Part shown: positions 12,023 to 62,016 of the stretch, in pieces
How the letters are laid out: each line of letters opens with the position of its first letter
Position numbering within the stretch: the first letter of the stretch is position 1
Program-made: the position numbers and the translations under genes
From: an uncultured Bacteroidales bacterium
GTDB lineage: Bacteria; Bacteroidota; Bacteroidia; Bacteroidales; VadinHA17
Direction: 5' to 3'
NCBI GenBank assembly: GCA_963736675.1
Contig: CAVTPT010000001.1
Location: 101,671 to 165,670 of the forward strand
DNA: 64,000 nucleotides
Notes under the pieces: generated by a model
Seen by the model: only the letters and a program-made list of their open reading frames with translations
What the model was told of the DNA's origin: nothing
Database searches by the model: none

Positions 12023-12120
12023 TAATTATTACATGGTTAAGGAAGTTTAAAGAAAATAAATCGACTTTTTAGACACAGAATCAGGGATTATTTCATAAAC
12101 ATGGGGATATTGTTTAAAAA

Positions 12121-49300: not shown

Positions 49301-52237
49301 GAGACGATCTGCCCCGGAGAGACCTCTGTCTTAACAATTGATATAATGTCGGGTACCGGTCCGTTTGAGATAGATATTGATCCTATCGGGACTATTTCAT
49401 ATGAGATCGGAGATGAGATAACAGTGACCCCGGTTATTACAACAACATACAGTCTCTTAAGGGTCAGGGATGCCAATAACTGTGAGGTTGTCAGTCCGTC
49501 TCCAAACCTTGGCGACGATGTGACCGTATTTGTCAGCGACCTGCCTGATATCACATCATTTAATCCTTCACTGCCTGTATGCGAATTCTCGTTCGCCACA
49601 TTCAATGTGGAAGCAACCGGAACCAACCTGACTTATCAGTGGTGGGTGGATGAAGGAGAAGGAGCCGGATTTGTTGAGGTTGAGGATGGTGCCACATATT
49701 TCGGTGCACAGACAAATACACTCCTTATATTCACTGCCATGAGGGAAATGGATGGCTATGTTTATCGTGTGGTCGTTTCGGGATGCGGTGTTGAAGAACA
49801 GTCTGTTGATGCCGTTTTCAGGGTAAATACAGCACCTGAGCTGACACTCCATCCAAGGGACACTGTCATCTGCCTCGGGCAGGATGCCGTAATGGAAGCT
49901 GAAGCTGACGGAGACGGAATAGAATGGCAATGGTTTGTAAACAGGGGAACAGGATTTGAACCGGTTGCAGATGATGGAGTGCTCTTCAGCGGAGCCGAAA
50001 CGCAAACGCTTACCATAACCAGTCCTCCGTATTCAGCAAGCCCCTGGATCTTCAGGGCAATAGCCAATGGCAGTTGCGGAGTGCCGGTCTATACAAATTT
50101 TGCGGTGATGAGGGTACTTAATCCTCCTTTAGTAACCCGACAGCCCGAATCTGATCCTGTTTGTGAAAACAGTAATATAATGATGACAGGAAACGGTACA
50201 GGTTTCACAAGCCTGCAATGGCAGGTTAACATCAGCGGGACATGGACCGATATAACTGACGATCTGACTTACCTTGGTGCCAGATCGCAGCAGCTGAATA
50301 TAATGGGAGCACCTCTCTCATTTAATGGTAACCAGTACAGGCTCGCTTTGATAACAAGCTGTGCTACAGTCTATACAGATGTTGTTACACTCACTGTCAA
50401 TGCAAATCCAACTGTAAACTTCCTTGAAGATCCTGTCTTCGCCTGCGGAGGTGTTGATGAAATAATAGATGGAAATCCGGCTGGCGGATCAGGAATCTAT
50501 ACAAGACATCGCTGGACAGGTGATGTAGGTCCCCTGAACAATTATACGGTACAGGCCCCGGTGTTTAATTCTTTAATACCAGGAGACTATAATCTGACTT
50601 ACCGGGTTGAAGACAGCAACGGGTGTGTCGCCAGCGATGACATTGTTGTCACAGTCGACTCTCCTTCTGCCTTGTTTACACAGGATAAGGATTATGGATG
50701 TACCCCTCTTGCAGTGACCTTTACATCAGACATGACAGATATCGTTAAATGGTGGTGGGATTTTGACGACGGCTCTCCCCTTGATTCTATAAATGATACT
50801 CCTGTTCACACCTTTGTCAACAACGATCCGACATCAATCCAGTACCGTAAAGTAACATTAAAGGTACTCTCTGCGGGTGGATGCTATGCAACCTTTGAAT
50901 CAATGGTGATAGTTTACCCAGGCATTGATGCAACATTTACTCCCGACACCGATATTATCTGCAGTGGCAATTCTATTAATTTTGCAGCCGCACCGGGAGC
51001 AAGCAGATACTTCTGGGACTTTGGTGACCTCTCTTCGGGATATGCGACCGGTAATACGAGCCACCTTTACATAAATCATGGAACCGGACCTGTTGTTTAT
51101 ACCGTACGGCTTATAACTACTTCGTTCTATAATTGTATTGATGAAGCTACATATAATATAACGGTAATGCCGGTTCCGATACCACAGTTCACTGCTGAAC
51201 CTGCAATCCAGGTCTTTAATCCGGCTGGAAGTGACGTCACATTCACCAACGAAACCAACGATGGATCGTGGACCTGGTTATGGAAGTTCGGAGACGGGGA
51301 AACATCAACAGAAGAAAACCCGGTACATAATTACATGGATGTCGGTGAGTTTGTTGTAACCCTTATTGCCGGTAATGCTTCCTGTTCCGACAGTGTCAGT
51401 CACACAGTAACAGTGCTTCCGATTCCTCCGGTGGCTGACTTTGATTCAATTCCGTCGGGATGTGCACCTCTTTATGTACAGATAAATAACACTTCGTTAA
51501 ATACCGAGGCTCCGGGAACAACTTTCAGATGGTCCTTCGGGGATGGCAGCTATTCGACAGCCAAAAATCCGACCTATACTTACTTCACGCCGGGAACATA
51601 CAGGATCGAACTGACTGTAACAGGTCCCGGAGGAACTTCAATAGTGTCGCAGGTTGTCAATGCCTATCCTTCACCCAAGGCCTATTTTGAGGTTACACCA
51701 ATACTTGTCTATGTTAATGATGAGAGAGTAAGGTGCTTCAACCTGAGCCAGGGAGCCAACTCCTTCCTGTGGGAGTTTGGTGATGGTGATACTTCAAAGA
51801 TGAGGGAACCATACCACAAATATATGGAAGAGGGTGTCTACGACATTACCCTCTGGGCATACTCCGATAACGGATGCACCGATAAGTATGTACTCTCTCC
51901 CGGAGTAACTGTTGAACCTCCCGGAGAATTAAGGTTTGCCACAGTCTTTACCCCAAACAAGGAGGGACCTATAGAACGTACCGATCTGCCTACCGGTGGT
52001 ACTGAGATCGACCAGTTCTTCTTCCCGCCTATCAGACAAAAAGTGCTGGATTATAAACTACAGATATTTAACAGATGGGGTGTGCTGATATTTGAGAGCC
52101 ATGATATTAATGTTCCATGGAACGGTTATTACAATGGCACATTATGCCAGCAGGGAGTGTATGTGTGGTATGTCGAAGGCAAATTTTCCGATGGTAAACC
52201 GTACAGACAGGTTGGAGACGTGACTCTGTTGCATTGA
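40145..52237 (+). CDS. Giant T9SS adhesin, main part: ~100-aa Ig-like repeats, ~23 SprB-like repeats, Ig and PKD domains, type-B (gliding-motility) C-terminal domain
   Basis: Repeats C..G.TG.I.VTV.GG...Y...W.....EDL.GLKAGTY.LTVTD.NGC; PKD WWDFDDG, WKFGDG, WSFGDG, WEFGDG; C-terminal FTPN...IFNRWG..IFES...WNG...GVY.W. Confidence 0.88.
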   Translation: MPDRPSVMVRMLPPLQVAEQLTGGSDSFTYTWLYTTSTTAPLGDAAWIEIPSTNSTAYNHGTLTATTRFVRRAVDATCTNPVYSNILTITVRPALSGGVIEEDQTICYGGDPARFDNVTAASGGGGSFTYLWFYTTNMLTVPGDADWTSIPSATGTGYNHGTLNTTTKFVRRAIDATCSTPVYSNQVTVTVHPQLNGGTIASSQTICYNDNVPAFESTEDATGGAGLFTYTWFYTTSTTAVPGGPGWTTVPSSNSTVYDHGTLTATTRFVRRAVDASCTTPVYSNVITVTVRPELTGGGITASQTICYGDDVTAFSSTTAAGGGAGAFTYSWLSTTNMTASPGDPAWNEIPSTNALIYDHGTLTATTRFVRKAVESTCTTPVYSNILTVTVRPELSGGVIADDQTICYGADVAVFSSTDDATGGAGNFTYTWQYTTNLAAITGDGTWTDIPSSDNETYNHGTLTATTKFVRMAVDASCSTPVYSNEVTVTVRPEPDGGTIAAAQVICSGGDPEAFTSIDGATGSSGSFTYTWLYNTNPSAVPGGPGWIEVPSSNSTVYDHGTLTTTTLFVRRAVDAVCLTPVYSNVIEVTVMPALYGGVISASQSVCYGDDPEAFTSLNDASGGTGAFTYTWQYTTNMAATAGDANWTDINDSDDPGYDHGVLLVPTRFVRKATDLACSNPVYSNILTVAIDPLPVTSEITGESILCEDSDDQIYRVVNTSGSAYFWTVPASFTIISPQGYNVIIVQVNGTTNPGDVITVTETNTATDCVGDPVEFPVTVLPVMPLADVTGPSVVCQGDAGVIYSVPDNPGSTYAWFVPAGASITSDPSLHQIEVTFSMAISGQIACIETSNLICTTVHNPAVVTVNTLPGIYTVSATPYYCYGTDGVTVTLSNSQAGVNYQLLKDGVAEGSAIPGTGSSITWPDMKAGIYMVRAASATSPVCEVLMNGNPAVEENPEIVISSITITEPKCYGSTDGSIVINASGGFPPLSTLTYSINGGTTFFASNTFTNVGQGTYNIVVKDLRNCTVASAPVTVNQPSELTITSLTVTTPVNCNGSSTGSVRVFIAGGTPLYSYQWYYDQFFASPIPGQISADATGLPAGTYYVKVTDINGCWKSGSITLTQPPAITGSGIVSTAVSCYGINDAIITVTATGGSGSLEYDLNGLNIWNNTGVFSGLGAGTYSIRVRDALAVSCIVNLQDVVITQPSELLVSVTSQANVLCFDGTTGAIGVTVSGGTLPAGGYLFSWTGSDYLGNAFTSTSEDLNGLKAGSYGLTVTDANGCTAILPPVTITQPPVLAVALDSQTNVLCYGETNGSITVTATGGAGPYTYAWTGTNYLGGAYFSPAEDISGLRAGTYNLRVTDANGCQRVLPAVIVTQPVALVLVVDDKTNVLCYDDATGAINVTVTGGVMPAGGYLYEWTGTDYLGNLFNSTLEDLASLKAGNYALTVTDANNCEITLPAVSITQPPDLTVTLNATVDVLCHDVATGAAYITVSGGVQPIGGYSFSWSGTDYLGNLYSSTVEDPSGLKAGTYDLVVTDQNGCTATLSDVVINQPPDLTVITEDQINVLCYNGTNGEIDVTVSGGVMPAGGYIYSWTGADYLGTYFASSSEDLTGLKAGTYNLAVRDANSCSVILPAVIITQPAAFTVSLDGKTDILCYDESTGSINVTVAGGVEPAGGYLFTWTGTDYTGTAFTSTDEDLTGLKAGTYLLSVGDANNCTVNLPAVTITQPADLTVSVNSQANVLCFDGTTGAISVTISGGTLPAGGYLFSWTGSDYLGNAFTSTSEDLNGLKAGSYGLTVTDANGCTAILPPVTISQPPVLAVALDSQTNVLCYGETNGSITVTATGGAGPYTYAWTGTNYLGGAYFSSAEDISGLRAGTYNLRVTDANGCQRLLPAVIVTQPVALVLVVDDKTNVLCHDDATGAINVTVTGGVMPAGGYIYEWTGTDYLGNLFNSTLEDLADLKAGNYALTVTDANNCEITMPAVSITQPPDLTVTLNATVDVLCHDAATGAAYITVSGGVQPIGGYSFSWSGTDYLGNLYSSTVEDPSGLKAGTYDLVVTDQNGCTATLSDVVINQPPDLTVITEDQINVLCYNGTNGEIDVTVSGGVMPAGGYIYSWTGADYLGTYFASSSEDLTGLKAGTYNLTVRDNNNCIVTLSTVTITQPPQFTVIRDDQVNILCHDGATGEINVTVSGGVIPAGGYIYEWTGTDYLGNSFSSADEDLAGLKAGIYSLTVTDANGCEAVLPLVSLTQPPDLTVTLLSVTNVMCHDAATGAINVNVSGGVMPAGGYTYTWTGTDYLNNAYSGSTEDPSGLKAGTYDLTVTDNNMCTVALSTVTVSQPDDLTVVLEDQTNVLCYDAATGAIDITAAGGVMPSGGYYYTWTGTTYQGGAFNSNMEDLTGIKAGTYNLTVRDANGCSVILPAVIITQPAAFTVSLDGKTDILCYDESTGSINVTVAGGVVPAGGYLFTWTGTDYTGTAFTSTDEDLTGLKAGTYLLSVGDANNCTVNLPAVTITQPADLAVSVNSQANVLCFGEATGAIYVTVSGGTIPAGGYLFNWTGTDYMGNSYTSNDEDLAGLYAGTYNLTVTDQNGCNVSILPVTITAPLPLVIDVNVTSNYNGRDISCTGAFDGRATATVTGGTGIYFYTWYSDPGFSVPIGQMAPSAINLAAGEYYVRVMDMNGCSITGSVTLTDPPLLDASVVTLTNVDCFNNATGAVTVEAVTGSGTGPYSYSKDGGFTWQPAGEFTGLSAMTYTILVRDANNCIKAVPVIITQPSQLIATISDFDNVSCSGGNDGSVTITVPAGSGTAPYTYTINGTDWQPGGAFTGLTAGSYNIEVRDDNNCSVILPVIISEPPLLELNPTADIVLDCYDDHDGTGTFYAVGGTPGYTFTQILNGADATFAAQGYNSQIIFNAGAGVVTVMVTDSKGCNTEASITFTEPDILEPGSIGNDQVLCYGESPAALVQIDPPDGGPLPFDFKFQWQYSATGSEPFLNISGAVQEGFTPDSPATGTLYYRRMVTSGFCQPVYSNIVEVLVNPRPIAVLRGGETICPGETSVLTIDIMSGTGPFEIDIDPIGTISYEIGDEITVTPVITTTYSLLRVRDANNCEVVSPSPNLGDDVTVFVSDLPDITSFNPSLPVCEFSFATFNVEATGTNLTYQWWVDEGEGAGFVEVEDGATYFGAQTNTLLIFTAMREMDGYVYRVVVSGCGVEEQSVDAVFRVNTAPELTLHPRDTVICLGQDAVMEAEADGDGIEWQWFVNRGTGFEPVADDGVLFSGAETQTLTITSPPYSASPWIFRAIANGSCGVPVYTNFAVMRVLNPPLVTRQPESDPVCENSNIMMTGNGTGFTSLQWQVNISGTWTDITDDLTYLGARSQQLNIMGAPLSFNGNQYRLALITSCATVYTDVVTLTVNANPTVNFLEDPVFACGGVDEIIDGNPAGGSGIYTRHRWTGDVGPLNNYTVQAPVFNSLIPGDYNLTYRVEDSNGCVASDDIVVTVDSPSALFTQDKDYGCTPLAVTFTSDMTDIVKWWWDFDDGSPLDSINDTPVHTFVNNDPTSIQYRKVTLKVLSAGGCYATFESMVIVYPGIDATFTPDTDIICSGNSINFAAAPGASRYFWDFGDLSSGYATGNTSHLYINHGTGPVVYTVRLITTSFYNCIDEATYNITVMPVPIPQFTAEPAIQVFNPAGSDVTFTNETNDGSWTWLWKFGDGETSTEENPVHNYMDVGEFVVTLIAGNASCSDSVSHTVTVLPIPPVADFDSIPSGCAPLYVQINNTSLNTEAPGTTFRWSFGDGSYSTAKNPTYTYFTPGTYRIELTVTGPGGTSIVSQVVNAYPSPKAYFEVTPILVYVNDERVRCFNLSQGANSFLWEFGDGDTSKMREPYHKYMEEGVYDITLWAYSDNGCTDKYVLSPGVTVEPPGELRFATVFTPNKEGPIERTDLPTGGTEIDQFFFPPIRQKVLDYKLQIFNRWGVLIFESHDINVPWNGYYNGTLCQQGVYVWYVEGKFSDGKPYRQVGDVTLLH
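43790..46600 (+). repeat. Near-identical intragenic duplication with 1575-bp offset (five SprB-type repeats copied)
   Basis: gtcaggcaaatgttct at 43791 and 45366; long matching blocks; a sixth repeat at ~45044 recurs at ~47411. Confidence 0.88.
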
Positions 52238-52276
52238 CCATCGTTCCCCGAAGGCAGGGGAAGATTCCACGACAGG

Positions 52277-52326
52277 GGGCTGTCACAGGAGCTAAAAAAG
52301 GCTTTTGTGACAGCCCTTTCTGTTTT
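52277..52326 (+). terminator. Intrinsic terminator after the giant gene
   Basis: gggctgtcacaggagc / gcttttgtgacagccc 16-bp stem (two G-T pairs) followed by tttctgtttt. Confidence 0.7.
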
Positions 52327-52447
52327 CCGGTTCAGTGGCTCTCCCACTATAGCCCCGGTTAACCCTGTTTCAACTCTTTTCAACGTTTTTTTCATTTTTC
52401 TGATAAAAAAGTCCCTGAAATACACCATTCGTTTAGAATTATTTTTC

Positions 52448-52455
52448 TAAATTTG
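52448..52455 (+). promoter_or_regulatory. Possible -7 box (TAAATTTG) upstream of the hlyD-PCAT operon
   Basis: Exact TAnnTTTG match ~180 bp upstream of the HlyD start; no clear -33 box. Confidence 0.3.
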
Positions 52456-52637
52456 GTTAGCTGCATTTCTAAATCGCAAAGTCATGTCTCTTTTTGATCA
52501 AAAAAAAGGATGCATTTTTTGTCTGCTTTGCACCTCTGTTTTTCCCCTGATACCTGAAATCAGTCGGTCTCTGAACTGTTTTCAATCAGGGAATCCATTT
52601 AACCTTATCAAATTCAGTCACCCAATCTGCACAGCCG

Positions 52638-53810
52638 ATGGACCTGATACCTTTTAATCTGAGCAATTACACTCTTGAGAACTATCTTCTGAAGATCACC
52701 ACACGCACCAGGATCATTTACTGGGTCATTATCGGGTATGCAATAGCCGCTATTGCTGCCCTGCCATTAATTTCGGTTGATGTCCCGGTACAGGCAAGAG
52801 GATTTTTTCAATCGGAGATAGAAAAACAGACAATCCTCGCTCCGTTTCAGGGAAGAGTCATATATGCATCCCTGAAGAACGGACAGTATATCAGAAAAGG
52901 AGATACCCTTTTAATAATTGACTCTGAAGCGTCAAGGGCGCAGAAGAGGTCGATCCTCGATAAGTTAATGAAGAATGATTCAGCCATATCAGATCTTGAA
53001 AAGCTGACCGTTCTCAGTAAGCCCGACGACAGGCTGAAAGCCTCTGATTTCAATACTGAGCGGTATTTTTCTGAATTCTCAGCCATGATTAAAACCTGGA
53101 ACATCCAGTATCAGAAATATCTGAAGGCAAGGGCTACTCACCAACGAAATGAAATTCTCCACGAAAAGGAGATAATCCCCGATAATGAATATGAGAATAC
53201 CCTTTATGTTTACAGATCGGAGGCGGAGAATCTTAATCAGGTCCTGATTCAGCATAAAAGTATGTGGCAGACCGACCTTTTACAGAGGAAGATTGATGCC
53301 GGCACATTTCAGGCTGAGCTGGGGAGGTATTCGGAGGAGCTTAATAACAGGATTGTGGTGTCGCCGGTCAGCGGAGATATCATACAGAGTGCTGACATCC
53401 AGGAAGGGACAATAGTATCAATTAATCAGCTGGTGGCTGAAATTTCGCCTGAGGGGAACCTGCTTGCTACCTGTTTTGTGAGACCATCCGACATTGGACT
53501 GATAAGAGCTGATCAAAAAGTGCGTATACAGGTTGATGCATTTAACTATAATGAATGGGGACTCTTAACGGCCAGTATACTTGATATCTCAAACGATATT
53601 ATAGTTCAAAACGGAAACGAGGCGTATTTCAGAATAAGATGCAAGCCTGAATCTGCCTCATTGTATATGAAGAACGGTCTTAAGGCTGATATCAGGAAAG
53701 GGATGAGCTTTAATGCCAGGATAATTGTCACAAGGCGGTCACTTTTTAACCTTTTATTTGATAAGGCCGACGACTGGTTTAATCCTTATTCAAACCAGGA
53801 GGAGGGATAG
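52638..53810 (+). CDS. HlyD-family membrane fusion protein
   Basis: Single N-terminal TM, QARGFF, LAPFQGRV, VRKGDTL-like IRKGDTLL, SPVSG, DIGLIRADQKVRIQVDAF..WG. Confidence 0.9.
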   Translation: MDLIPFNLSNYTLENYLLKITTRTRIIYWVIIGYAIAAIAALPLISVDVPVQARGFFQSEIEKQTILAPFQGRVIYASLKNGQYIRKGDTLLIIDSEASRAQKRSILDKLMKNDSAISDLEKLTVLSKPDDRLKASDFNTERYFSEFSAMIKTWNIQYQKYLKARATHQRNEILHEKEIIPDNEYENTLYVYRSEAENLNQVLIQHKSMWQTDLLQRKIDAGTFQAELGRYSEELNNRIVVSPVSGDIIQSADIQEGTIVSINQLVAEISPEGNLLATCFVRPSDIGLIRADQKVRIQVDAFNYNEWGLLTASILDISNDIIVQNGNEAYFRIRCKPESASLYMKNGLKADIRKGMSFNARIIVTRRSLFNLLFDKADDWFNPYSNQEEG

Positions 53811-53814
53811 AAAA

Positions 53815-55977
53815 ATGAATATCGGGATCAGACAGAGGGATATCTCCGATTGCGGGGCAGCCTGCCTTGCTTCAGTGGCAGCATGGTACAGGGTAAAGGT
53901 TCCGGTTTCAAGGATCAGGCAATATGCCGGGACCGATAAAAAAGGTACAAACGTACTTGGTCTGGTCGAGGCAGCAACAAAAATAGGATTTCTGGCAAAA
54001 GGTGTAAAAGGAGAGTGGGAGAGCCTGTTCAAGATTCCCCGGCCGGCAATAGCTCATGTTATTGTAAAAGGAGTACTGACACACTACGTGGTAATTGTAA
54101 ATATATCGGAATTAATTGTTGAAGTGATGGACCCCGCTGACGGGAAGCTTCACAAAATTTCTCACGAGGAGTTTAAGAAGCAGTGGACCGGGGTTCTCGT
54201 ACTGATCGTTCCGGGGGAGAAATTTACAATGAGGAATGAGGAAGTCGCAGTTACTGCACGGCTGTGGAGACTGATTAAGCCAAACCGCGGCGTACTTCTG
54301 CAGGCTCTTGCAGGGGCACTTTTATTTTCGGTATTGGGACTCTCAATGTCGCTCTATGTCGGCAGACTGGTTGACCATGTCATACCGGGAGGCAATCTGA
54401 ATCTTCTGAACCTGCTTGGCATCGTAATGATTGTCATAATTCTGTTCAGGATATTACTCAGCTTTTTCCAGTCTCTTTTTGTGCTCAGGACGGGTCAAAG
54501 GATAGATGCCTCGTTAATACTTGGATATTATCAGCACCTGCTGAGACTTCCGCAATCATTTTTCGACAATATGCGAACCGGGGAGATCATTTCCAGGATA
54601 GGCGATGCCGTAAAAATAAGGGTATTCATCAACGATGTAACTATTAATCTGATATTGAATATTTTCATCCTGTCGGTTTCCTTTATCCTTATGTTCACAT
54701 TTTTCTGGAAGCTTGCTCTTGTTATGCTCGTTGTTGTACCATTATATTTCTTAATCTATTATATATCCAACAGACTTAACAGGAGGGTGCAGCGAAAGGT
54801 AATGGAGCGTTCTGCAGATCTTGAAGCACAATTTGTGGAATCGCTTAATTCAGCGGGAACAATTAAGAGGTTTGGACTTGAGGAGTATTCAAATTTTAAA
54901 ACTGAGATCAGGTTTACGTCGTTGCTTGAGACTCTTTACAGTTCGGGATTGAATAATATCTTCTCTTCTCTCTCCAGCGGGCTGGTGACACAGCTTATAA
55001 CACTGCTTGTCCTCTGGACCGGAGCAGGATTTGTCCTTTCTGCCCTGATCACTCCCGGCGAATTGCTTTCCTTTTATGCTGTTACCGGGTACTTCACCGG
55101 GCCTGTCACGGGGATAATAGGTTTTAACCGGACCCTGCAGGATGCCAGAATAGCAGCTGACCGTTTATTTGAAATATTTGATCTTGATACGGATGATGAA
55201 TCAGGCAGGATCGAACTTAAGAAAGAGATGGTTGATGATATAAGTTTTGAAGATGTCAGGTTCAGGTACGGAACAAGAGTTGAGGTCTTCAGATCGCTGA
55301 ACCTCAAAATCAGGAAAGGAGAGATAACAGCAATAGCCGGGGAGAGCGGATCAGGCAAGAGTACTCTTGTATCGTTGCTGCAGAACCTTTACCCACTGCA
55401 GGAAGGACATATCAGTATCGGAAGGTATAACCTTCTTCATCTGACAAACAGCTCCATCAGGAAAATTATTTCTGTGGTGCCTCAGAAGATTGATCTTTTT
55501 GCAGGTAATATCTTCGACAATATAGCACCTGGTGAAATCACGCCCGATACTGAAAAGGTAATGGCTGTATGCGAAAAGCTTGGGATGACTCAATTTGTTG
55601 AGAGCCTGCCAAATGGTTTCAGCACCTATATCGGGGAAAACGGAGTGGCCCTTTCAGGGGGACAGAGACAGAGGATCGCAATTGCCAGAGCTCTCTACGG
55701 CGATCCTGAAATAGTGATCCTCGATGAGGCTACCTCTTCTCTTGATGCCCTGGCGGAGATGTTTGTACGTAATGCGCTGAAGATACTTCGTGATGAGGGT
55801 AAAACGGTAATTCTGATAGCTCACAGACTCTCTACCATTAATCTGGCCGACAGTATCATTGTACTTGACAGGGGCGAAGTTGTCCAGAATGGCACATATC
55901 GCGAGTTGTCAGCTGCTGAGGGGCATTTCCGTAAGATGTATTTTCAACAGGGGATTTTAGAAACAGTAACAACCTAA
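53815..55977 (+). CDS. Peptidase-containing ABC transporter (C39 + ABC; double-glycine peptide exporter)
   Basis: QRDISDCGAACL (catalytic Cys), THYVVI, MDPADG; Walker A GESGSGKST, LSGGQRQ, VILDE; start MNIG at 53815. Confidence 0.95.
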   Translation: MNIGIRQRDISDCGAACLASVAAWYRVKVPVSRIRQYAGTDKKGTNVLGLVEAATKIGFLAKGVKGEWESLFKIPRPAIAHVIVKGVLTHYVVIVNISELIVEVMDPADGKLHKISHEEFKKQWTGVLVLIVPGEKFTMRNEEVAVTARLWRLIKPNRGVLLQALAGALLFSVLGLSMSLYVGRLVDHVIPGGNLNLLNLLGIVMIVIILFRILLSFFQSLFVLRTGQRIDASLILGYYQHLLRLPQSFFDNMRTGEIISRIGDAVKIRVFINDVTINLILNIFILSVSFILMFTFFWKLALVMLVVVPLYFLIYYISNRLNRRVQRKVMERSADLEAQFVESLNSAGTIKRFGLEEYSNFKTEIRFTSLLETLYSSGLNNIFSSLSSGLVTQLITLLVLWTGAGFVLSALITPGELLSFYAVTGYFTGPVTGIIGFNRTLQDARIAADRLFEIFDLDTDDESGRIELKKEMVDDISFEDVRFRYGTRVEVFRSLNLKIRKGEITAIAGESGSGKSTLVSLLQNLYPLQEGHISIGRYNLLHLTNSSIRKIISVVPQKIDLFAGNIFDNIAPGEITPDTEKVMAVCEKLGMTQFVESLPNGFSTYIGENGVALSGGQRQRIAIARALYGDPEIVILDEATSSLDALAEMFVRNALKILRDEGKTVILIAHRLSTINLADSIIVLDRGEVVQNGTYRELSAAEGHFRKMYFQQGILETVTT

Positions 55978-55989
55978 ACACTATATGTC

Positions 55990-56331
55990 ATGAAAATATT
56001 TGAATATCTCGATCGCATCGGCAGAATGCACAAGCTGGTTCAAAGGCGGAGAACCGGGACCCCGGAGGAATTTGCGCGGCAGCTGGGCGTAAGCCGTACA
56101 AGTCTGTATGAGTTAATTGATGAATTAAGATCGCGGGGTGCTCCTATTTCTTATTCAAAGGCAGCAAAGACTTATTACTACAGCGAGCCTTTTGATATAT
56201 CAGTAACATGTTCTCTCCGGCCCATGACATACCTTGAGGAAAAACAGGTGTCGGGGGGGAATATTTTCGATAGAATCCTTTTTTTCCGGATCTTAAGTAC
56301 TGAAATTAGTGGTACTGTATTTCAGTGCTAA
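55990..56331 (+). CDS. Small winged-HTH DNA-binding protein with a C-terminal double-glycine-leader-like extension
   Basis: TGTPEEFARQLGVSRTSLYELIDELRSRGAPISY; tail SLRPMTYLEEKQVSGG-NIFDRILFF. Confidence 0.78.
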   Translation: MKIFEYLDRIGRMHKLVQRRRTGTPEEFARQLGVSRTSLYELIDELRSRGAPISYSKAAKTYYYSEPFDISVTCSLRPMTYLEEKQVSGGNIFDRILFFRILSTEISGTVFQC

Positions 56332-56383
56332 AACCCCTGGCCTATAAATGGGGGATCAAAAAAATTAATTAAATTTAATTGTC

Positions 56384-56566
56384 ATGAAAATTGAAAATTT
56401 TTCCGTAAGAGAACTGACCTCCGAGGAGCAGATCCAGATCAACGGAGGAGGCTTTTTTGCTGATGTGTGGGGTGCGATATGCACAGCCGCAAAATGGATT
56501 TGGGAAAATGTAACCTTTTCAGTGGAGTACCAAACCGGTGATTATACATGGAAGGCTTCAACATGA
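56384..56566 (+). CDS. Double-glycine leader peptide precursor (class II bacteriocin-like, Trp-rich core)
   Basis: Leader MKIENFSVRELTSEEQIQINGG fits L-S/T-x-x-E-x-x-x-I-x-G-G; downstream of a C39 PCAT; AT-rich ribosome-binding region. Confidence 0.88.
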   Translation: MKIENFSVRELTSEEQIQINGGGFFADVWGAICTAAKWIWENVTFSVEYQTGDYTWKAST

Positions 56567-56583
56567 AAACTTTTGAATGGTGT

Positions 56584-56613
56584 AAGAGATCAGGAATTCA
56601 TTCCTGATCTCTT
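56584..56613 (+). terminator. Perfect 14-bp hairpin after the peptide gene (terminator or mRNA stabiliser)
   Basis: aagagatcaggaat-tc-attcctgatctctt; no strong U-tract. Confidence 0.6.
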
Positions 56614-56630
56614 GATAATAATATTATTGA

Positions 56631-57824
56631 GTGAAAACTATACTGATTTTGATAAATAAAAACTTCATTGTGAAATACTATTTTATATTATTCTTTCTGG
56701 TTCAATTTTTTAACATTAATTCATTATTTTCTCAAATTAAAGTGAGAATTCAACTTGTTGAAAAAGAATCAAAGTTGACTATTCCTTTTGCATACATAAA
56801 GGTTCCGAGTAAAAATATTGTTTTGAATTCAGATCAGGATGGTTTCTTTTCTACCGAATTATCTAAGAATGACACAATTGAAATAACTCATGTTGCATAT
56901 AAGAGTCTAAGAATTGCATATTCGGATATAGGAAAAAATGCCACAATAGAATTAGATGAATTACCAGTACTACTTAATCCTATAATTATTAGTTCAAAAA
57001 ATGCGGAAATAACTGTTAAAAGAGCGATTGGGGCCACTTACGAATCAATGCAAACTCCAATGAATTTTTCCTGTTTTCGCAAAGATCAAATTACAATAAA
57101 CGATACTTTAGTGACTGAGGCGGATGCAGAAATAATTTATAAACTGAAGAAATTGAATTCTGCTAGTCACGGGGGAAATTTAAAGAGTTATTTAATAAAT
57201 GTTCATGTTTATAAGAATTCTTTGTTTAATAAATTAATGATCCCTAATTATTTTCTTGGGGCGATTTTTGCTCCAATAAACACATTTATTGCCGGGTTTT
57301 CAAAAAATGATGATCAATTATTAAATTTCAGTTATCAAGAAGGAAACGATTCTTTGATTATCGTAGGGGCGAAACCAAAAAAAAATATAAGACCAAAAAA
57401 TGGGGAATTAATAAAACAAGGCAATTTTGTAATAAATAAAAACACTGGAAAATTAATTCAAATTGTAACAAGTTTAAGTCCTGAGATGATGGAATGGGGA
57501 CGGAACAATTCTTCCAGAGAAAAAAATCCTAATCTTTTTTATTATCATTATACATTCTCTCAATATTTTGATCAGGAAGGATTTCCGTCAAGGGTGTCTT
57601 GCAGTATAAAGTTTTCCATTAAAGAAGATAATCCCAATAAAATATGGAGTAATAATTCAGAGCTAATTTTTACAAAATTGTCCCAGGACGATTTAATATT
57701 GGATAAATCCCATGAATTGAATAATGATTCTACCCTTGTCCAGATGAAATCCAGATTTGATCCTGATTTTGAAAAGAGGTTCACCAGATATATTCCTTCT
57801 ACCGGAACCGATAATAATCAATAA
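56631..57824 (+). CDS. Secreted protein with N-terminal CarboxypepD_reg-like domain
   Basis: Signal-like N-terminus, IPFAYIKV...NSDQDGFF...DTIEITHVAYK; very AT-rich; start uncertain (56631 or 56658). Confidence 0.7.
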   Translation: MKTILILINKNFIVKYYFILFFLVQFFNINSLFSQIKVRIQLVEKESKLTIPFAYIKVPSKNIVLNSDQDGFFSTELSKNDTIEITHVAYKSLRIAYSDIGKNATIELDELPVLLNPIIISSKNAEITVKRAIGATYESMQTPMNFSCFRKDQITINDTLVTEADAEIIYKLKKLNSASHGGNLKSYLINVHVYKNSLFNKLMIPNYFLGAIFAPINTFIAGFSKNDDQLLNFSYQEGNDSLIIVGAKPKKNIRPKNGELIKQGNFVINKNTGKLIQIVTSLSPEMMEWGRNNSSREKNPNLFYYHYTFSQYFDQEGFPSRVSCSIKFSIKEDNPNKIWSNNSELIFTKLSQDDLILDKSHELNNDSTLVQMKSRFDPDFEKRFTRYIPSTGTDNNQ

Positions 57825-58042
57825 TTTTAAAGACGGGGTAATCCCGGGGATATATATCCCGATGAAAGACCGGAACTTATTCCTGTAAATATTCCGTGCC
57901 AGCCAGTTACTGGCAGCCCCATCAAAAAAACTATTTCGCCCGCTACGGGGCTTGAATATCATTTGTATATAATATAGGACGGGCTTCGCCCATCCCTGTG
58001 GTATTTCAGGCCTACGGCCTTTAAATCAGAGTGAGAGTGAGT

Positions 58043-59160
58043 GTGAGGAAATCCATTGCACAGAAATAGTACAGCTCTATAAATTGGGTCTGTTTGTATG
58101 AATGCCTGAGCATCTGAATCTGAACGCTGTCAGTGCGGACTACTTTAAACAATCTGGTCACAATTGGATTTGAGCTCCGTAGGAGCGGCCTGTTTGTAGT
58201 AACGCCTGCCCCCTAACGGTTTTAAGCACCGTCAGCGCGGCCTGTAGTTAATTGAAGACAGGTAAATTCCTTTAAGGGTTTTGGATCAACAAGGGTTTCA
58301 TGTCTCCCAAAACAACAGAATCAAAAAACCAGTCCGCCCTGACGGGGCTCGATATTCTTTTCATGATTGATTTCTACAAACAGTCCGCCCCCACGGGGCT
58401 GAAGAAGGAGCGAGAGTGAGGAAATCCATTGCACAGAAATAGTACAGCTCTATAAATTGGATTTGTTTATAGAAATACCTGAGACCTCAGGATCTGAGCA
58501 CCGTCGGCGCGGCCTTCCTGTAACAATCTGGTCACCATTGGTTTTGAGCTCCGTAGGAGCGGCCTGTTTGTAGTAATGCCTGCCCCCTAACGGTTTTAAG
58601 CACCCTCAGCGCGGCCTGTAGTTAATTGAAGACAGGTAAATTCCTTTAAGGGTTTTGGATCAACAAGGGTTTCATGTCTCCCAAAACAACAGAATCAAAA
58701 AACCAGTCCGCCCTGACGGGGCTCGATATTCTTTTCATGATTGATTTCTACAAACAGTCCGCCCCCACGGGGCTGAAGAAGGAGCGAGAGTGAGTAAATC
58801 CATTGCACAGAAATAGTACAGCTCTATAAATTGGATTTGTTTGTAGAAATACCTGAGACCTCAGGATCTGAGCGCCGTAGGTGCGGCCTTCCTGTAACAA
58901 TCTGGTCACCATTGGTTTTGAGCTCCGTAGGAGCGGCCTGTTTGTAGTAACGCCTGCCTCCAACGGTTTTGAGCGCCGTCAGCGCGGCCTGTAGTTAATT
59001 GAAGACAGGTAATTTCCTTTAAGGGTTTTGGATCACCAAGGGTCTCATGTCTCCCGAAACAACAGAATCAATAACCAGTCCGCCCTGACGGGGCTCGATT
59101 TTCTTTTCATGATTGATTTCTACAAACAGTCCGCCCCCACGGGGCTGAAGAAAGAGTGAG
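58043..59160. repeat. Three tandem ~374-bp units built from REP-like hairpins in both orientations (BIME-like)
   Basis: aaatccattgcacag at 58049, 58422, 58796; agctccgtaggagcggcctgtttgtag (58173) inverted against ctacaaacagtccgcccccacggggct (58374). Confidence 0.9.
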
Positions 59161-59173
59161 AGTGAGAGCAGGT

Positions 59174-59220
59174 AAAAAGAGAGTCCCCGGATGTGGATTA
59201 CCAGCGAAAATCCGGGGACT
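59174..59220 (-). terminator. Intrinsic terminator, - strand, unit 1
   Basis: agtccccggat/atccggggact stem followed on the - strand by ctcttttt. Confidence 0.7.
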
Positions 59221-59543
59221 CGAACCGTTCATATGATGCCTGAACGGTCATCAAGCACAGTGAAACGCAGCGAAAGTGCCTGAAAAATCAGGAGAAGGCA
59301 TTATCAATCGGAACTAATTTTCTGCTCTGCTTTATAAATGGGAAATCATATTAAGCATTTTTTTCAGAATCATATTCATTAACCTGTTCACATTGTACTA
59401 CAATTTTAAAAAGACCCGGGGACACAAAAATGAGCAAAGCATATGTTCTACAGCATATTATTGATAATTTATATCTGTTACATAGGATTTTCAGATCGTG
59501 CTATATATTTAATCTTGTAGAAAAAGTGAGTGTGAGGACAGGT

Positions 59544-59589
59544 AAAAAAAGAGTCCCCGGATATTGATCAGCAACAATAATCCGGGGAC
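59544..59589 (-). terminator. Intrinsic terminator, - strand, unit 2
   Basis: gtccccggat/atccggggac stem followed on the - strand by tcttttttt. Confidence 0.72.
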
Positions 59590-59780
59590 ATGGTTTTGAA
59601 AACCAACCGTTCATATGATGCCTGAACGGTCATCAAGCACGGTGAAATGCAGCGAAAGTGCCTGAAAGTCAGGAGGAGGCATTGTCAATAGGAGCTAATC
59701 TTCTGCTCTGCTGTATAAGTGGAGGTTCATATTAAACATTTTTTTCAGAATCATATTCATTAACCTGTTCACATTGTACT
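59544..59780 (-). ncRNA. Candidate ~230-nt structured small RNA (second copy ~59174-59400)
   Basis: No conserved ORF above 21 aa, conserved hairpins, own terminator, duplicated. Confidence 0.3.
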
Positions 59781-59838
59781 ACAATTTTAAAAAGACCCGG
59801 GGACACAAAAATGGACAAAGCGTATGATCTACAACATA

Positions 59839-60048
59839 TTATTGATAATTTTCGTCTGTTACATAGCTTTTTCTGATCGGACAGTATCTTATCTCATTGC
59901 CCGATTTCCGGAGTTCAGAAATAATCCGTTTGACACTTCTTTCACTAATTTCAAGTCTTGTCGCAAGCTCTGCAGGAGTCCCGGTGCACTTTAGGGAAAC
60001 AAGCCTGCTTATCCTGACTTTCAGATTATGACTATTGTTCCTGGCCAT
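59839..60048 (-). CDS. Small winged-HTH protein, paralog of 55990-56331
   Basis: TGTPAELATRLEISERSVKRIISELRKSGNEIRY..RKSY. Confidence 0.8.
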   Translation of the reverse strand: MARNNSHNLKVRISRLVSLKCTGTPAELATRLEISERSVKRIISELRKSGNEIRYCPIRKSYVTDENYQ

Positions 60049-60228
60049 AATATTCAGATTTAATTACCATTAAATCGAGGCAGACAGTATAAAATTAAAC
60101 CTTATCTGAATAAAAGTCAAGAAATTTTAGGGATTTTTAGTAAATACTTTAGAGACAGATTCCTTAACAGGATTTCTGATCAACTTTTTTCCGGTTCAGG
60201 TAAGATATAAAAAGAAGTAACAAACATA

Positions 60229-62016
60229 TCACCTTTCAAACCTGCTGTTTTGCTTTGTATACATTGCGAAATAGAGCCCGCCTTTTTTCATCAGTTCCCC
60301 GTGGGTGCCCGATTCAATAATTTCACCCCTGTCAAGTACAATGATCTTATCGGCCAGCGAGACATTTGTAAAACGGTGACTAATCAGGATGGCTGTCCTG
60401 TCGCTGACTGTTTCCCTGAACCTGCTGAAGATCTCAAATTCGGTGTCTGCATCCAGAGCGCTCGACGGCTCATCGAGAATAAGTACAGGGGCATCCCTGA
60501 ATATGGCCCTCGCCAGGGCAATTTTCTGCCATTCCCCCCAGCTAAGCTCCCTGCTGTCGTCAAGAAGGGTCCCGATATTTGTATCGTAACCTTCAGGAAG
60601 TGAGCTGATCAGTTCATGAACCCCCGACTCCAGGGCTGCTTTCTTTATCTTAATTTCAGGATCAGCTGAATCAAGATCACCAATCCGGATATTTTCTCCT
60701 GCCCTGAGGTTGTACAGCATAAAGTCCTGGAAAACCACTGAAAAGAGTCTTCTGTACTTTTCAGGATCAATGTTCCTTATGTTATTACCATCGATTCTGA
60801 CCGACCCGGTAGCCGGATCATATAACCTTGTCAGAAGTCGTACAAGGGTACTTTTACCCCCGCCGTTAGGTCCTACAACAGCCAGTATCTCCCCTTTTTT
60901 GATCTCAAAGGATACATTGTTTATTGCCGGGGATTTATTACCCGGATATGTAAATGACAGATTCTCAACCTCTATATTTTTCATAAGGGTTGAAACTGAT
61001 ACAACAGGAGGTGCAGCTGTTATTTTTTCTTCAAGGCTGAGGAATTCAAATGTATCGCCAATGAAAAGACTATCCTCATAAAGCCCTGCCAGCGAGCCAA
61101 AAAGCTCTTTAATAAATATCATACCCTGACGGAATGCGAGAAGGAACATTGCCATCTCACCGAGAGTCAGACTGTTATTTATTGTTTTGTTTACGGTGAA
61201 CAGGATAAGGAAAAGCATTGCGGCAGCTTTCACAATATCCGAGACTATCTCAATAAGCATTCTCTTCCGGGCAATGTTGATTTCCTCTTCCTTAACACTA
61301 AGAAATGATTTCCGGAAGAGGCTGATGAAATACTCCCCAAGTCCGAATAATCTCAATTCCCGTGACGGTCTCTCCCCGGTTATCAGCCAGTTGAAATATG
61401 CCGACCTCCTTGATTCGGGGGTCTGTTCTCTCTGAAAAGTATAAAGAACATCGGCGTAATGTAGTCTGAGCCAGATCCCCGGGATATTCACAACAAACAG
61501 AAGCAGTGCCATGGTCCAGTGAAGAGAAACAAGAAGAAATGCCATCATGATCAGAGAAAGTAATGCCCGCATCATCAGAATAAGGTTATTCAGAATGCTG
61601 TTGGGCCGCCATGGAGCTTCCCTTGCAGCCCGGGTCAGCAAGTCGAAATATCCGGGATATTCGAAATTGATAAGGTCGAGTTTTACAGCCTTTGAATGAA
61701 GCAGATTGTACATGTGGATCTCCAGCTTCATCGATTGTTTCTTCTTGACATAATTGCCGAAATCGGAGACAGCTTCATCGATAAAATATAATATTACAAC
61801 AGCAGCAATGATCCCTATAATATCATTAATGGATTTATCTCCTGTGTCAGAAACCGTGAGTGTTATCTGATCGACAAGAATTTTTATAAGCAGGAGCAGA
61901 GCAAGGGGTGTGAAGCTGCGGATAACAGAGACCAGTGTGTTAACAAGCGCCCATCCGGGTGCACTCTGCCAGACAAGGACCAGTGATTCCCGGAACAACT
62001 TATACTTTTCTCTCAT
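60229..62016 (-). CDS. ABC exporter, fused permease/ATPase (RiPP-cassette type)
   Basis: Six TM segments, GPNGGGKST, LSWGEWQKIALAR, ILDEPSSALD, LISHR. Confidence 0.92.
   Translation of the reverse strand: MREKYKLFRESLVLVWQSAPGWALVNTLVSVIRSFTPLALLLLIKILVDQITLTVSDTGDKSINDIIGIIAAVVILYFIDEAVSDFGNYVKKKQSMKLEIHMYNLLHSKAVKLDLINFEYPGYFDLLTRAAREAPWRPNSILNNLILMMRALLSLIMMAFLLVSLHWTMALLLFVVNIPGIWLRLHYADVLYTFQREQTPESRRSAYFNWLITGERPSRELRLFGLGEYFISLFRKSFLSVKEEEINIARKRMLIEIVSDIVKAAAMLFLILFTVNKTINNSLTLGEMAMFLLAFRQGMIFIKELFGSLAGLYEDSLFIGDTFEFLSLEEKITAAPPVVSVSTLMKNIEVENLSFTYPGNKSPAINNVSFEIKKGEILAVVGPNGGGKSTLVRLLTRLYDPATGSVRIDGNNIRNIDPEKYRRLFSVVFQDFMLYNLRAGENIRIGDLDSADPEIKIKKAALESGVHELISSLPEGYDTNIGTLLDDSRELSWGEWQKIALARAIFRDAPVLILDEPSSALDADTEFEIFSRFRETVSDRTAILISHRFTNVSLADKIIVLDRGEIIESGTHGELMKKGGLYFAMYTKQNSRFER

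Follow-up and report, generated by a model that had tools for sequence, protein, structure and literature searches.

Within the window, by which we mean the whole stretch of 64,000 nucleotides analysed, five genes form what is, judged from its sequence, a genuine operon for the cleavage and export of a peptide, carried by an environmental Bacteroidales bacterium. The locus is read as a type I (PCAT/HlyD/TolC-type) exporter of an unmodified double-glycine (GG) peptide, which would resemble class II microcins or bacteriocins and be accompanied by a new type of partner or immunity protein (probability roughly 0.6). Its general type is familiar, most likely that of a small antibacterial-peptide system; what sets it apart is its peptide family and the adjoining periplasmic partner, neither of which has been described before. 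An unmodified GG-peptide system of Bacteroidota had already been proposed in the initial annotation, and this proposal is supported by the lack of a modifying enzyme in the operon, the conservation of the precursor ORF and a cargo type that follows the PCAT tree.

Organization of the locus and its exporter

A sequence check confirmed the order given in the initial annotation (hlyD, C39-PCAT, HTH, GG precursor, hairpin and CarboxypepD-like protein, after a terminator), with all five genes and both hairpins in place on the + strand (Table 1). The gaps between the genes are 1–52 nt long, so that the arrangement is as expected of an operon. The first hairpin, terminator-like, ends the upstream giant adhesin gene, whose ORF stops at 52237, and marks the 5' boundary of the locus. 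The putative promoter is a candidate only, the sole argument for it being its position; across the window, its motif is not enriched (48 found by pattern search vs 61 expected).

Table 1. Features of the peptide export locus (positions within the window).
Feature	Position	Strand	Description
Intrinsic-terminator-like hairpin	52274..52319	+	20-bp stem, 9 GC pairs, then T-rich tail/T-run
TAAATTTG	52448..52455	+	Candidate promoter; matches Bacteroidota -7 motif TAnnTTTG, intergenic, 183 nt upstream of hlyD
hlyD	52638..53810	+	Periplasmic adaptor (membrane fusion protein, MFP) of type I exporter; HlyD_3 1.4e-18, TIGR01843 5.6e-34
PCAT	53812..55977	+	ABC exporter with C39 peptidase domain; Peptidase_C39 2.1e-31, ABC_membrane 6.3e-44, ABC_tran 4.6e-29
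HTH1	55990..56331	+	113-aa winged-helix regulator, conserved third operon gene; HTH_11 25.7 bits (cut-off 25)
HTH1 internal Gly-Gly and 23-aa hydrophobic tail, NIFDRILFFRILSTEISGTVFQC	56254..56328	+	GG = residues 89-90, 56254-56259
pepA	56384..56566	+	60-aa precursor; 22-aa double-glycine leader and 38-aa core
pepA leader, MKIENFSVRELTSEEQIQINGG	56384-56449	+	22 aa, double-glycine type
pepA core, GFFADVWGAICTAAKWIWENVTFSVEYQTGDYTWKAST	56450-56563	+	38 aa, region after GG
Stem-loop directly after pepA stop	56584..56613	+	Perfect 13-bp stem
CarbD	56631..57824	+	397-aa Sec-exported partner; signal peptide, NTE/CarboxypepD_reg beta-sandwich, LolA-like helix and curved-sheet domain

All three domain matches of the PCAT exceed the Pfam cut-offs. 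The protein, whose start codon is ATG (alternative start: TTG at 53725), aligns end to end with the solved PCAT1 (4ry2; residues 4–712, E 3.5e-150), and its catalytic triad is intact relative to this structure, comprising Cys (DCGAACL), His (HYVV) and Asp (DP). Against TIGR01193 it scores 509.3 bits, slightly below the curated cut-off of 523.85, an observation that counts against the main reading. Orthologues of hlyD (44–60% identity) lie directly 5' of the PCAT gene in 52/61 related loci. The outer-membrane channel had been expected to be encoded elsewhere; accordingly placed candidates were recovered by a genome scan, which found about 14 TolC-type genes, all away from the locus, and none of the 61 related loci has a TolC-type gene within 7 kb of its regulator gene.

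The class II microcin paradigm combines a PCAT, an MFP and TolC with an adjacent immunity gene (PMC12219008). As in microcin V/colicin V (CvaA-CvaB-TolC, CvaC, Cvi), an HlyD-family MFP and a PCAT are encoded together, TolC lies elsewhere, an unmodified GG-leader precursor is adjacent and a dedicated partner gene stands beside the peptide. Differences from microcin V are the anionic, Trp-rich core, the environmental Bacteroidales host, the constant presence in the operon of a small HTH regulator that bears a GG site of its own, and the partner, which is not a small inner-membrane immunity protein but a Sec-exported protein of 397 aa with two domains. With the bacteroidetocins of gut Bacteroidales, the locus shares a PCAT-dependent GG-leader peptide of Bacteroidota, but it differs from them (Coyne et al. 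2019; Matano et al. 2021) in having an HlyD adaptor, a single Cys, a dedicated partner and no oxidoreductase. Bacteroidetocin loci consist of four genes (TM protein, peptide, thiol oxidoreductase, PCAT) without an immunity gene, and their peptides carry disulfides (PMC6671954). In the sister genomes G007 and G017, loci with a gene set like that of the bacteroidetocins were found, but these are a separate locus type, which comprises a TM protein, a thioredoxin-like protein (by eye) and a PCAT of only 28% identity.

The precursor peptide and the adjoining stem-loop

The pepA leader carries L-12, E-8, I-4 and GG, with 8 positions invariant among 12 family members. The core (charge -2, pI 4.3, monoisotopic mass 4348.03) contains 4 Trp, a single Cys and several Ser, Thr and Tyr residues, ends in Ser-Thr, and reads, by its sequence pattern, as a predicted (amphipathic) helix followed by a beta-hairpin. 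Core charges within the family range from 0 to -6, and this anionic character speaks against the main reading, most pore-forming class II bacteriocins being cationic. PCAT-dependent processing and export of the peptide are very probable, and for an antagonistic function the odds appear somewhat better than even.

Homologues of pepA occupy the same position in L073, L075, L043, L071, L093, L026, L027 and L025, and a profile search yielded at least 50 clusters of relatives, all annotated as 'hypothetical'; by these matches, pepA is not an orphan peptide. The gene is under purifying selection (pairwise dN/dS 0.20–0.25). The initial annotation had named a lack of conservation beside the PCAT as an argument against the system; the ORF proved to be kept there in other genomes.

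The stem-loop that follows pepA has a predicted energy of -19 to -22 kcal/mol (z = -4.25 vs shuffles). A strong hairpin is found within the first ~10–45 nt past the pepA stop in 8/8 pepA loci, with unrelated stem sequences, and the hairpins of L043 and L093 have classic T-tails. The probable function of the structure is to set the peptide:partner ratio, as a leaky terminator or 3' stabiliser.

The partner protein CarbD and its proposed role

Searched alone, CarbD matches CarbopepD_reg_2 weakly (22.4 bits, cut-off 32.2); the match is present in 20/23 members of its family. The CarbopepD_reg-type fold of the N-domain was confirmed in an AF2 model (mean pLDDT 84.5), in which Foldseek related it to the SusC NTE (9hfj; TM 0.77) and also to 9n2d_E, a subunit of the F. 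johnsoniae BAM complex. In the C-domain, a helix is joined by an antiparallel sheet that is long and curved; its matches are to the LolA superfamily, DUF1329, RseB and LolA3 (3buu, 4z48, 2p4b, 9tp6), with probabilities of 0.8–1.0 and TM-scores of at most 0.36. That the putative LolA-like assignment depends on Foldseek probabilities accompanied by such low TM-scores counts against the main reading. CarbD thus shares with LolA/LolB/RseB/DUF1329 and the SusC NTE a predicted fold, an N-terminal transthyretin-like sandwich followed by a sheet, but no sequence similarity. The earlier description as a 'CarboxypepD-like secreted protein' is refined to that of a Sec-exported protein in which an NTE-like sandwich is combined with a LolA-like domain. 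We know of no description of this domain combination or of its fixed association with GG peptides. With 25 representatives among 1.84e9 (E<1e-10), the family is small; Gln35, just past the signal peptide, is conserved to at least 90%, and a lipobox Cys is lacking.

The HlyD-PCAT-HTH arrangement recurs in 52/61 related loci, and the pepA-hairpin-CarbD module lies 3' of HlyD-PCAT-HTH1 in at least 9 other genomes or contigs (JGI contig, L026, L027-L030, L043, L071, L073, L075, L093). Because both units recur, the gene arrangement is, on comparative grounds, more than chance. In L097, a CarbD relative of 25% identity again has before it a GG peptide, with a W..W helix and an end that resembles a strand, and further distant relatives lie inside PCAT or GG-peptide islands in L033 and L098. 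GG-leader ORFs are located 3' of HTH1 in 45/58 sister loci. After the peptides follows an Rce1-like/CPBP (CPBP/Abi-type membrane) protein in 19 sister loci and CarbD in 5 loci and the window; the two share the same slot and are mutually exclusive (together in 0 loci). Both partner types are strikingly AT-rich relative to their transporters, the GC content being 29% for the CarbD gene and 45% for the PCAT gene. On the PCAT tree, loci with the same cargo type group together; the CarbD label requires 3 changes there vs 5.8 expected (0/500 shuffles as low).

Gram-positive class IIb two-peptide bacteriocin loci, such as those of plantaricins, contain Abi/CPBP immunity proteins. They are resembled by the sister loci with this backbone, which hold 2–3 different GG peptides and then the Rce1-like/CPBP protein, and by the 'long' pepA loci, most of which, where the available sequence suffices, hold two paralogous peptides. 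The cassette type of the window departs from them in having a LolA-like periplasmic protein in the CPBP place and one peptide only.

The CarbD gene sits in what appears to be the immunity-gene position, and a role of its product as an immunity or binding protein is proposed tentatively, at slightly less than even odds. Two points stand against the main reading here: the immunity proteins validated for microcins are small and sit in the inner membrane, unlike a 400-aa periplasmic protein (PMC12219008), and bacteroidetocins, the only characterised Bacteroidales GG toxins, come without any immunity protein (PMC6671954).

In the proposed mechanism, transcription of hlyD-PCAT-HTH1-pepA would start upstream of hlyD, and the post-pepA stem-loop would pass only a share of the transcripts into the CarbD gene. 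The C39 domain would recognise the 60-aa precursor via its 22-aa leader and cleave it behind Gly22; the core of 38 aa, anionic and rich in Trp, would be pumped out via the HlyD adaptor, leaving through one of the TolC-type channels. CarbD would be exported to the periplasm by Sec and bind its cognate peptide with the LolA-like open sheet, most likely protecting the producer, and would thereby take the slot held by the CPBP/Abi-type membrane protein in sister loci.

Alternatively, CarbD might help in export or delivery, as a LolA-like carrier or chaperone of the amphipathic peptide, or serve as a target-like decoy or paralogue of the attacked protein. LolA-fold proteins carry hydrophobic cargo through the periplasm and match CarbD in fold, and its place between two paralogous peptides in most long-peptide relatives with enough sequence would be odd for an immunity gene. 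The N-domain also resembles a BAM-complex subunit, and bacteroidetocins are reported to target BamA (PMC8546649); this likeness of the N-domain is, however, that of a generic beta-sandwich. In general, PCAT/HlyD/TolC systems move their substrate in one step, with no periplasmic intermediate, and the mutual exclusion of CarbD and CPBP-type proteins at one position fits a shared protective role better, which renders the helper or decoy function rather unlikely.

The regulator, signalling and the neighbouring cassette

Relatives of HTH1 occur in 61 loci of the species-level genome collection (46–76% identity, one outlier 35%). Residues 1–70 are modelled with pLDDT above 90 (AF2), and the conserved tail has no confidently predicted fold (pLDDT below 50). 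The internal GG is nearly invariant (at least 90% conserved in 55 aligned sequences), the 'ILFFRT' after it is also conserved, and direct comparison of the translations showed that the segment before it matches the pepA leader in register at -16, -14, -11, -8, -5, -2 and -1. Long leaders of the NHLP/Nif11 type are reportedly cut by PCATs (Haft et al. 2010). HTH1 is like them in that a folded domain of ~90 residues precedes a GG site, with a short peptide at the C-terminus, in a gene beside a PCAT, but it starts with a DNA-binding winged helix, and its post-GG tail is strongly conserved instead of hypervariable. Cleavage of HTH1 at its GG is entirely hypothetical.

A fixed regulator gene in the operon would suit a peptide that acts as a pheromone: after its export by the PCAT, the population would sense it, and HTH1 or the periplasmic partner would serve as receptor or relay. 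The GG peptides ComC and BlpC are streptococcal pheromones, pepA has a single, weak NCBIfam match, which is to BlpC (E 0.0068), and an anionic core is unusual in a membrane-active toxin. Yet ORF list and domain search revealed no histidine kinase, response regulator or peptide importer at the locus. Pheromone-receptor pairs usually co-diversify, whereas HTH1 stays similar among loci whose cargo differs completely, and several peptides followed by an Rce1-like/CPBP protein, as in the sister loci, are a classic bacteriocin-immunity layout. A signalling role is therefore considered unlikely, and a bacteriocin is favoured on purely contextual grounds.

As initially annotated, the operon lacks a modifying enzyme: Pfam/NCBIfam-type domain searches of its genes found no rSAM, LanM or YcaO domain. 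A convergent cassette encoding PqqD, an HprK-like kinase, an S26 peptidase and an ABC transporter lies 2–7 kb downstream and is, by its gene content, a separate LPP-type system. That both operons form one biosynthetic unit in which the cassette modifies the pepA peptide is very improbable. The cassette does follow the HTH1 locus in 17/61 related loci, and the core has several Ser, Thr and Tyr residues, including its Ser-Thr end; the upstream adhesin gene, however, shows the same pattern of conservation over 17 loci, which explains the adjacency by inherited synteny. The cassette moreover has its own exporter and leader peptidase and occurs without a PCAT within the 20-kb stretch examined in G011/L024. 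LPP precursors require a YxxPxVLxHQxIxFETxxS leader for the RRE (PMC13381572), whereas pepA has a GG leader, and YxxPxVLxHQ is absent from pepA and from every frame of the window.

It is hardly credible that the cassette is a decaying remnant whose pepA and partner no longer function after loss of a second peptide: a paralogous pepB follows the partner in 4/5 long-peptide relatives with sequence past it and is found nowhere in the window's genome, and REP-like tandem repeats begin 210 nt past the partner gene, but pepB is also missing from L073, the nearest checkable relative, where HTH2 follows directly, the single-peptide 'short' form (GG|GF[FL]A.VW..IC) is common to the window, L073 and L075, their PCATs form a supported clade (99/97), and the reading frames are all intact and under purifying selection.

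Locus architecture, export machinery and modification

In predicted function, the locus resembles the class II microcin systems and the class II bacteriocin loci. It shares with them an HlyD protein together with a C39 ABC exporter (PCAT), the availability of TolC-type channels and an adjacent unmodified precursor with a Gly-Gly (GG) leader; all architectural features correspond except the type of immunity protein, and an antibacterial function is predicted. The gene set was compact, was located on the + strand between 52.2 and 57.9 kb and followed a strong terminator-like hairpin. Domain searches confirmed the gene families, and all genes and hairpins lay as described in the initial annotation. 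An Rfam search of positions 52000-60300 gave no match. A scan for sigma-70 promoters returned 22 sites (20.3 expected), which corresponds to chance level, and the Bacteroidota -7 motif was not enriched across the window.

Positions of the locus, its flanking regions and the convergent operon in the window
Feature	Position	Strand	Description
Adhesin ORF	40145-52237		4030 aa, repeat-rich
Terminator-like hairpin	52274-52319		20-bp stem and T-run; closes the adhesin ORF
hlyD	52638-53810	+	HlyD_3 and TIGR01843 matches
PCAT	53812-55977	+	Peptidase_C39, ABC_membrane and ABC_tran
HTH1	55990-56331	+	113 aa, HTH_11
HTH1 GG and tail	56254-56328		residues 89-113; tail hydrophobic and conserved
pepA	56384-56566	+	60-aa ORF
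Stem-loop	56584-56613	+	13-bp perfect stem, z = -4.25 against shuffles
CarbD	56631-57824	+	397-aa ORF
First repeat array	58035-59166		three tandem 374-bp units, 93% matches
Second repeat array	59160-59890		two ~366-bp units, 85% identity, directly after the 374-bp array
69-aa HTH	59839-60048	-	HTH1 paralogue; convergent operon
ABC exporter	60229-62016	-	convergent operon
S26/SipW-like peptidase	62000-62509	-	convergent operon
HprK-like kinase	62484-63371	-	convergent operon
PqqD (RRE)	63461-63748	-	convergent operon

The upstream end of the adhesin ORF may extend further 5', and its C-terminal part was kept upstream of hlyD in 17 related loci. Together, the two repeat arrays take up the space that separates the convergent operons. 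Pieces of the 374-bp unit were present at ~14 other sites in the genome. In relatives, the corresponding space contained other repeat arrays as well as RAYT-like genes for IS200-like Y1 transposases (8 loci, >50% identity).

Nothing about the export machinery is unusual. The C39 domain of PCAT scored 108.9 bits with PF03412 (cut-off 22), its catalytic Cys (DCGAACL), His (HYVV) and Asp (DP) were in register with those of PCAT1 (4ry2), and the two proteins could be aligned end to end (residues 4-712, E 3.5e-150). Membrane and nucleotide-binding domains were combined in a single chain (ABC_membrane, 151 bits; ABC_tran, 102 bits). PCAT passed every domain-level and structure-level test, although its score with the NCBIfam model TIGR01193 (bacteriocin_ABC; 509.3 bits) was narrowly under the curated cut-off of 523.85. 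The stop codon of hlyD precedes the start of PCAT by 1 nt, and the pair was kept in 52 of 61 related loci, which were obtained by scanning species-level genomes with an alignment of the regulator HTH1.

The outer-membrane channel had been expected to be encoded elsewhere, in agreement with the results obtained. The genome contained 28 OEP-repeat matches, equivalent to about 14 TolC-type genes, all of them far from the locus, and five TolC queries gave no match within 7 kb of HTH1 in any of the 61 loci. The exporter must borrow its channel, as is also the case for the microcin V system, which makes use of TolC (PMC12219008).

Two further C39 sites were identified in the genome, each with its own GG peptide nearby, neither of which resembled pepA. 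After a first genome-wide regular expression for GG leaders had proven too loose, a stricter version was used, which retrieved from the whole genome only pepA and the two peptides beside the other C39 sites. Both sites lie outside the window. On contig C4 (662188-669850), a second PCAT (730 aa) and its HlyD protein adjoined an ECF-type sigma factor, a 1027-aa TPR protein and a GG-leader ORF (MKNFTNEKISENFKNFTLTNDEMFCVRGG/EGEGTPTVLPNPPKPVI). On contig C2 (99240-103234), a C39 peptidase fragment, itself an 84-aa ORF, was found together with a 38-aa GG-leader ORF (MKKPRKMNVNPEKVMKNKELKILRGG/EEEWVYLRRCGF) among three paralogous proteins of 357-395 aa.

The claim that the operon encodes no modifying enzyme was borne out, as neither Pfam nor NCBIfam showed a radical SAM, LanB/C/M, YcaO or other tailoring enzyme among the five products. 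The convergent operon, which is followed by an RNase R gene, contained no cyclase, rSAM or visible precursor, and its gene set corresponds to that of the linear polyphosphorylated peptide (LPP) pathway (PMC13381572). Precursors of this pathway, described in 2026, need a YxxPxVLxHQxIxFETxxS leader for RRE binding (PMC13381572). This motif occurred neither in pepA nor in any of the six reading frames around the locus, and in the genome G011 an LPP-type cassette was present with no PCAT in the 20 kb retrieved. The cassette was thus rejected as a modifier of pepA. Of the 61 loci, 17 had it downstream of HTH1, and 17 likewise had the adhesin gene upstream, so that inherited synteny explains the adjacency. 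The LPP-type cassette is a system separate from the pepA locus.

The peptide family and its conservation

The 22-aa leader of pepA (MKIENFSVRELTSEEQIQINGG) carries L-12, E-8, I-4 and the terminal GG. Eleven columns were invariant in 12 family members (M1, V8, E10, L11, E15, N20, G21, G22, W29, I32 and W38), with W29, I32 and W38 falling in the core. A word-indexed single-sequence search with pepA retrieved its own cluster only, a misleading result that made the peptide appear to be an orphan; the family was recovered with a profile search and with tblastn guided by gene context. The profile search yielded at least 50 clusters, none of which contained a Pfam domain and whose named members were all annotated as "hypothetical protein". 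Pairwise dN/dS values of pepA were 0.20-0.25 at a dS of ~0.7-1.3. The peptide is presumed to be expressed, processed and active.

The cores of the family comprise 38-50 residues, including 3-4 Trp, and have a net charge of 0 to -6. The window core contains one Cys and has a pI of 4.3 and a monoisotopic mass of 4348.03. Judged by sequence pattern, its N-terminal half (FFADVWGAICTAAKWIWENV) looks like an amphipathic helix, and the alternation in its C-terminal half (TFSVEYQ-TGD-YTWKAS) resembles that of a beta-hairpin. Two forms were distinguished: a long form with cores starting GG/GKLxEF... (related loci L043, L071, L093, L026, L027 and L025) and a short form starting GG/GF[FL]A.VW..IC, which is 4 residues shorter and has a conserved Cys (window, L073 and L075).

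The few full-length relatives of the partner protein CarbD were all found in the order HlyD, PCAT, 113-aa HTH protein, 66-70-aa ORF and CarbD, usually followed by a further 65-72-aa ORF. The small ORFs beside them proved to be pepA homologues, and pepA and CarbD were present together in five further HTH1 loci (L043, L071, L073, L075 and L093). In the PCAT tree, CarbD-type loci formed two supported clades, window+L072+L073 (99/97) and L043+L093+L071+L026 (95/90), and the CarbD label was clustered far above chance (0/500 shuffles as low). The concern raised in the initial annotation that the ORF might not be conserved beside PCAT was thus dispelled: its homologues occupy the same place, and the label is clustered on the tree.

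In the long form, a second, pepA-paralogous gene (pepB) followed CarbD as a full ORF in L043, L071, L026 and L027 and as the beginning of a pepB-like leader before the contig end in L025; it was not detected in L093. Neither an intact pepB nor a remnant was found 3' of CarbD or anywhere else in the window's genome. It was also lacking in the short-form locus L073, where the next gene is HTH2, a shorter HTH1 paralogue; the contig of L075 ends too early to show its presence or absence. The single-peptide state is therefore a feature of the lineage rather than obvious decay. Every pepA gene was followed, within the first ~10-45 nt past its stop codon, by a strong hairpin whose stem sequence varied by locus, two of these hairpins having classic T-tails. 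This pattern is consistent with a conserved element that sits between peptide and partner as an attenuator or 3' stabiliser.

The partner protein and the regulator

CarbD has few relatives: its family counts 25 representatives (E<1e-10) among 1.84 billion. In the family alignment, a hydrophobic N-terminus precedes a Gln with at least 90% conservation, and a lipobox Cys is absent. The N-terminus and the Gln look like a type I signal-peptidase site of a kind common in Bacteroidota. No type IX C-terminal domain was recognised. The AF2 model of CarbD (mean pLDDT 84.5) contained, apart from the cleavable signal, no further TM helix and was composed of a beta-sandwich (37-108), a helix (122-139) and a long antiparallel sheet up to residue 350. 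The N-domain was assigned as CarboxypepD_reg-like (PF13715), based on family matches and the modelled sandwich fold: CarbopepD_reg_2 was matched by 20 of 23 aligned members (best 6.3e-13), the window protein alone scoring 22.4 bits, under the gathering cut-off of 32.2, and Foldseek aligned the sandwich with the SusC NTE domain 9hfj (TM 0.77, rmsd 2.0). The rest of CarbD matched the LolA superfamily, including 3buu, 4z48 (DUF1329), 2p4b (RseB) and 9tp6 (P. gingivalis LolA3), with a probability of 0.8-1.0 but TM-scores of at most 0.36. Its predicted secondary-structure layout agrees with a LolA-type curved antiparallel sheet with helical plug. Given the low TM-scores, a LolA-like C-domain is considered likely but not established.

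Behind the peptides, 19 of the 61 HTH1 loci carried a gene for a membrane protein with homology to the Rce1-like/CPBP proteins, and five loci and the window carried CarbD instead; the two partner types never occurred together at one locus. The CPBP/Rce1-like family includes classic bacteriocin immunity proteins. The partner genes were AT-rich, with a GC content of 24-35% (CarbD 29-35%, CPBP 24-29%) versus 39-46% for their own transporters. The gene in the immunity position was always far richer in AT than the transporter genes, whichever partner type was present (window CarbD; relatives L037, L044 and L063). Distant CarbD relatives (25-28% identity range) were found directly behind a GG peptide at L097 and, at L033 and L098, within islands of GG peptides, CPBP genes and PCAT.

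Based on this context, which outranks the fold match as an argument, CarbD is most likely a cognate peptide-binding partner with a protective role. A role as carrier, chaperone or decoy is a serious alternative. No small inner-membrane immunity protein adjoins pepA, its neighbour being a 397-aa protein with a signal, whereas validated microcin immunity proteins have at most 216 aa and are membrane-embedded (PMC12219008). CarbD was dismissed as the missing outer-membrane component, since the model showed a soluble LolA-type fold with no closed barrel and no evident amphipathic membrane belt. Read in this way, CarbD, with its LolA-like fold, may represent a new kind of cognate partner or immunity protein.

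The regulator HTH1 accompanied the transporter closely. A PCAT match with >55% identity was present in 55 of the 61 loci, and HTH1 followed PCAT nearly wherever the contig allowed. Among 55 aligned HTH1 sequences, at least 90% had Gly-Gly at residues 89-90, with a conserved xxF..ILFFRT motif behind it. In the window translations, the segment preceding this GG was identical in register to the pepA leader at positions -16, -14, -11, -8, -5, -2 and -1 and similar at -15, -12 and -4. AF2 modelled residues 1-70 as a confident winged helix, the leader-like segment as a short helix and the tail with a pLDDT <50. The tail is missing in shorter HTH1 paralogues, namely HTH2 and the 79-89-aa forms of the genomes G007, G017 and G011. 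A comparison of the HTH1 profile with PDB sequences gave just marginal winged-helix matches, such as the BirA N-domain.

A tail that is conserved and without a confident fold, encoded next to a GG-specific protease, hints at the C39 domain cutting or capturing it, and the GG is possibly a PCAT cleavage or docking site. In a further reading, HTH1 would itself be a PCAT substrate or sensor, its GG and the leader-like segment before it being recognised by the C39 domain, and a LolA-fold CarbD would at the same time form a new structural class among bacteriocin immunity or binding proteins; we give this tentative joint reading a chance of roughly one in five. If it is true, cutting or capture would free the 23-aa hydrophobic tail from the DNA-binding domain, and transcription would respond directly, via HTH1, to transporter activity or to substrate load. 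Alternatively, the HTH1 tail would itself be secreted, as a second and conserved peptide.

Comparison with known systems

Unmodified toxins with a GG leader were for a long time regarded as rare in Gram-negative bacteria. Class II microcins are now known to be widespread, with almost all tested examples coming from Enterobacteria. To our knowledge, bacteroidetocins are the only characterised representatives of such toxins in Bacteroidales, and the locus described here differs from theirs. The bacteroidetocin definition comprises a four-gene locus with a TM protein, a thiol oxidoreductase and a peptide with at least 2 Cys and a 15-aa leader (PMC6671954). The window locus encodes neither an oxidoreductase nor a TM protein, its core has one Cys and its leader 22 aa, which rules out a bacteroidetocin locus.

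No description of the pepA family, the LolA-like/NTE partner or the GG-bearing regulator was found in the literature and databases searched. The locus type was present in at least 61 species-level genomes, nearly all of them uncultured Bacteroidales/Bacteroidota MAGs from fens, peat, lakes and soils. With it comes a new family of peptides, anionic and rich in Trp, in which a helix and then a beta-hairpin are suggested by the sequence pattern, and the conserved GG of HTH1 hints that the export protease is directly coupled to gene control.

A different PCAT locus, whose transporter has 28% identity to the window's PCAT, was present in two sister genomes (L020 of G007, 7007-11122; L021 of G017, 8149-12631). 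Among its products were a TM protein (220 aa) and a protein that was thioredoxin-like by eye (173 aa), and Gly-rich GG peptides were additionally found in G007. By its predicted products, this gene set is bacteroidetocin-like, and it again adjoins an LPP-type cassette.
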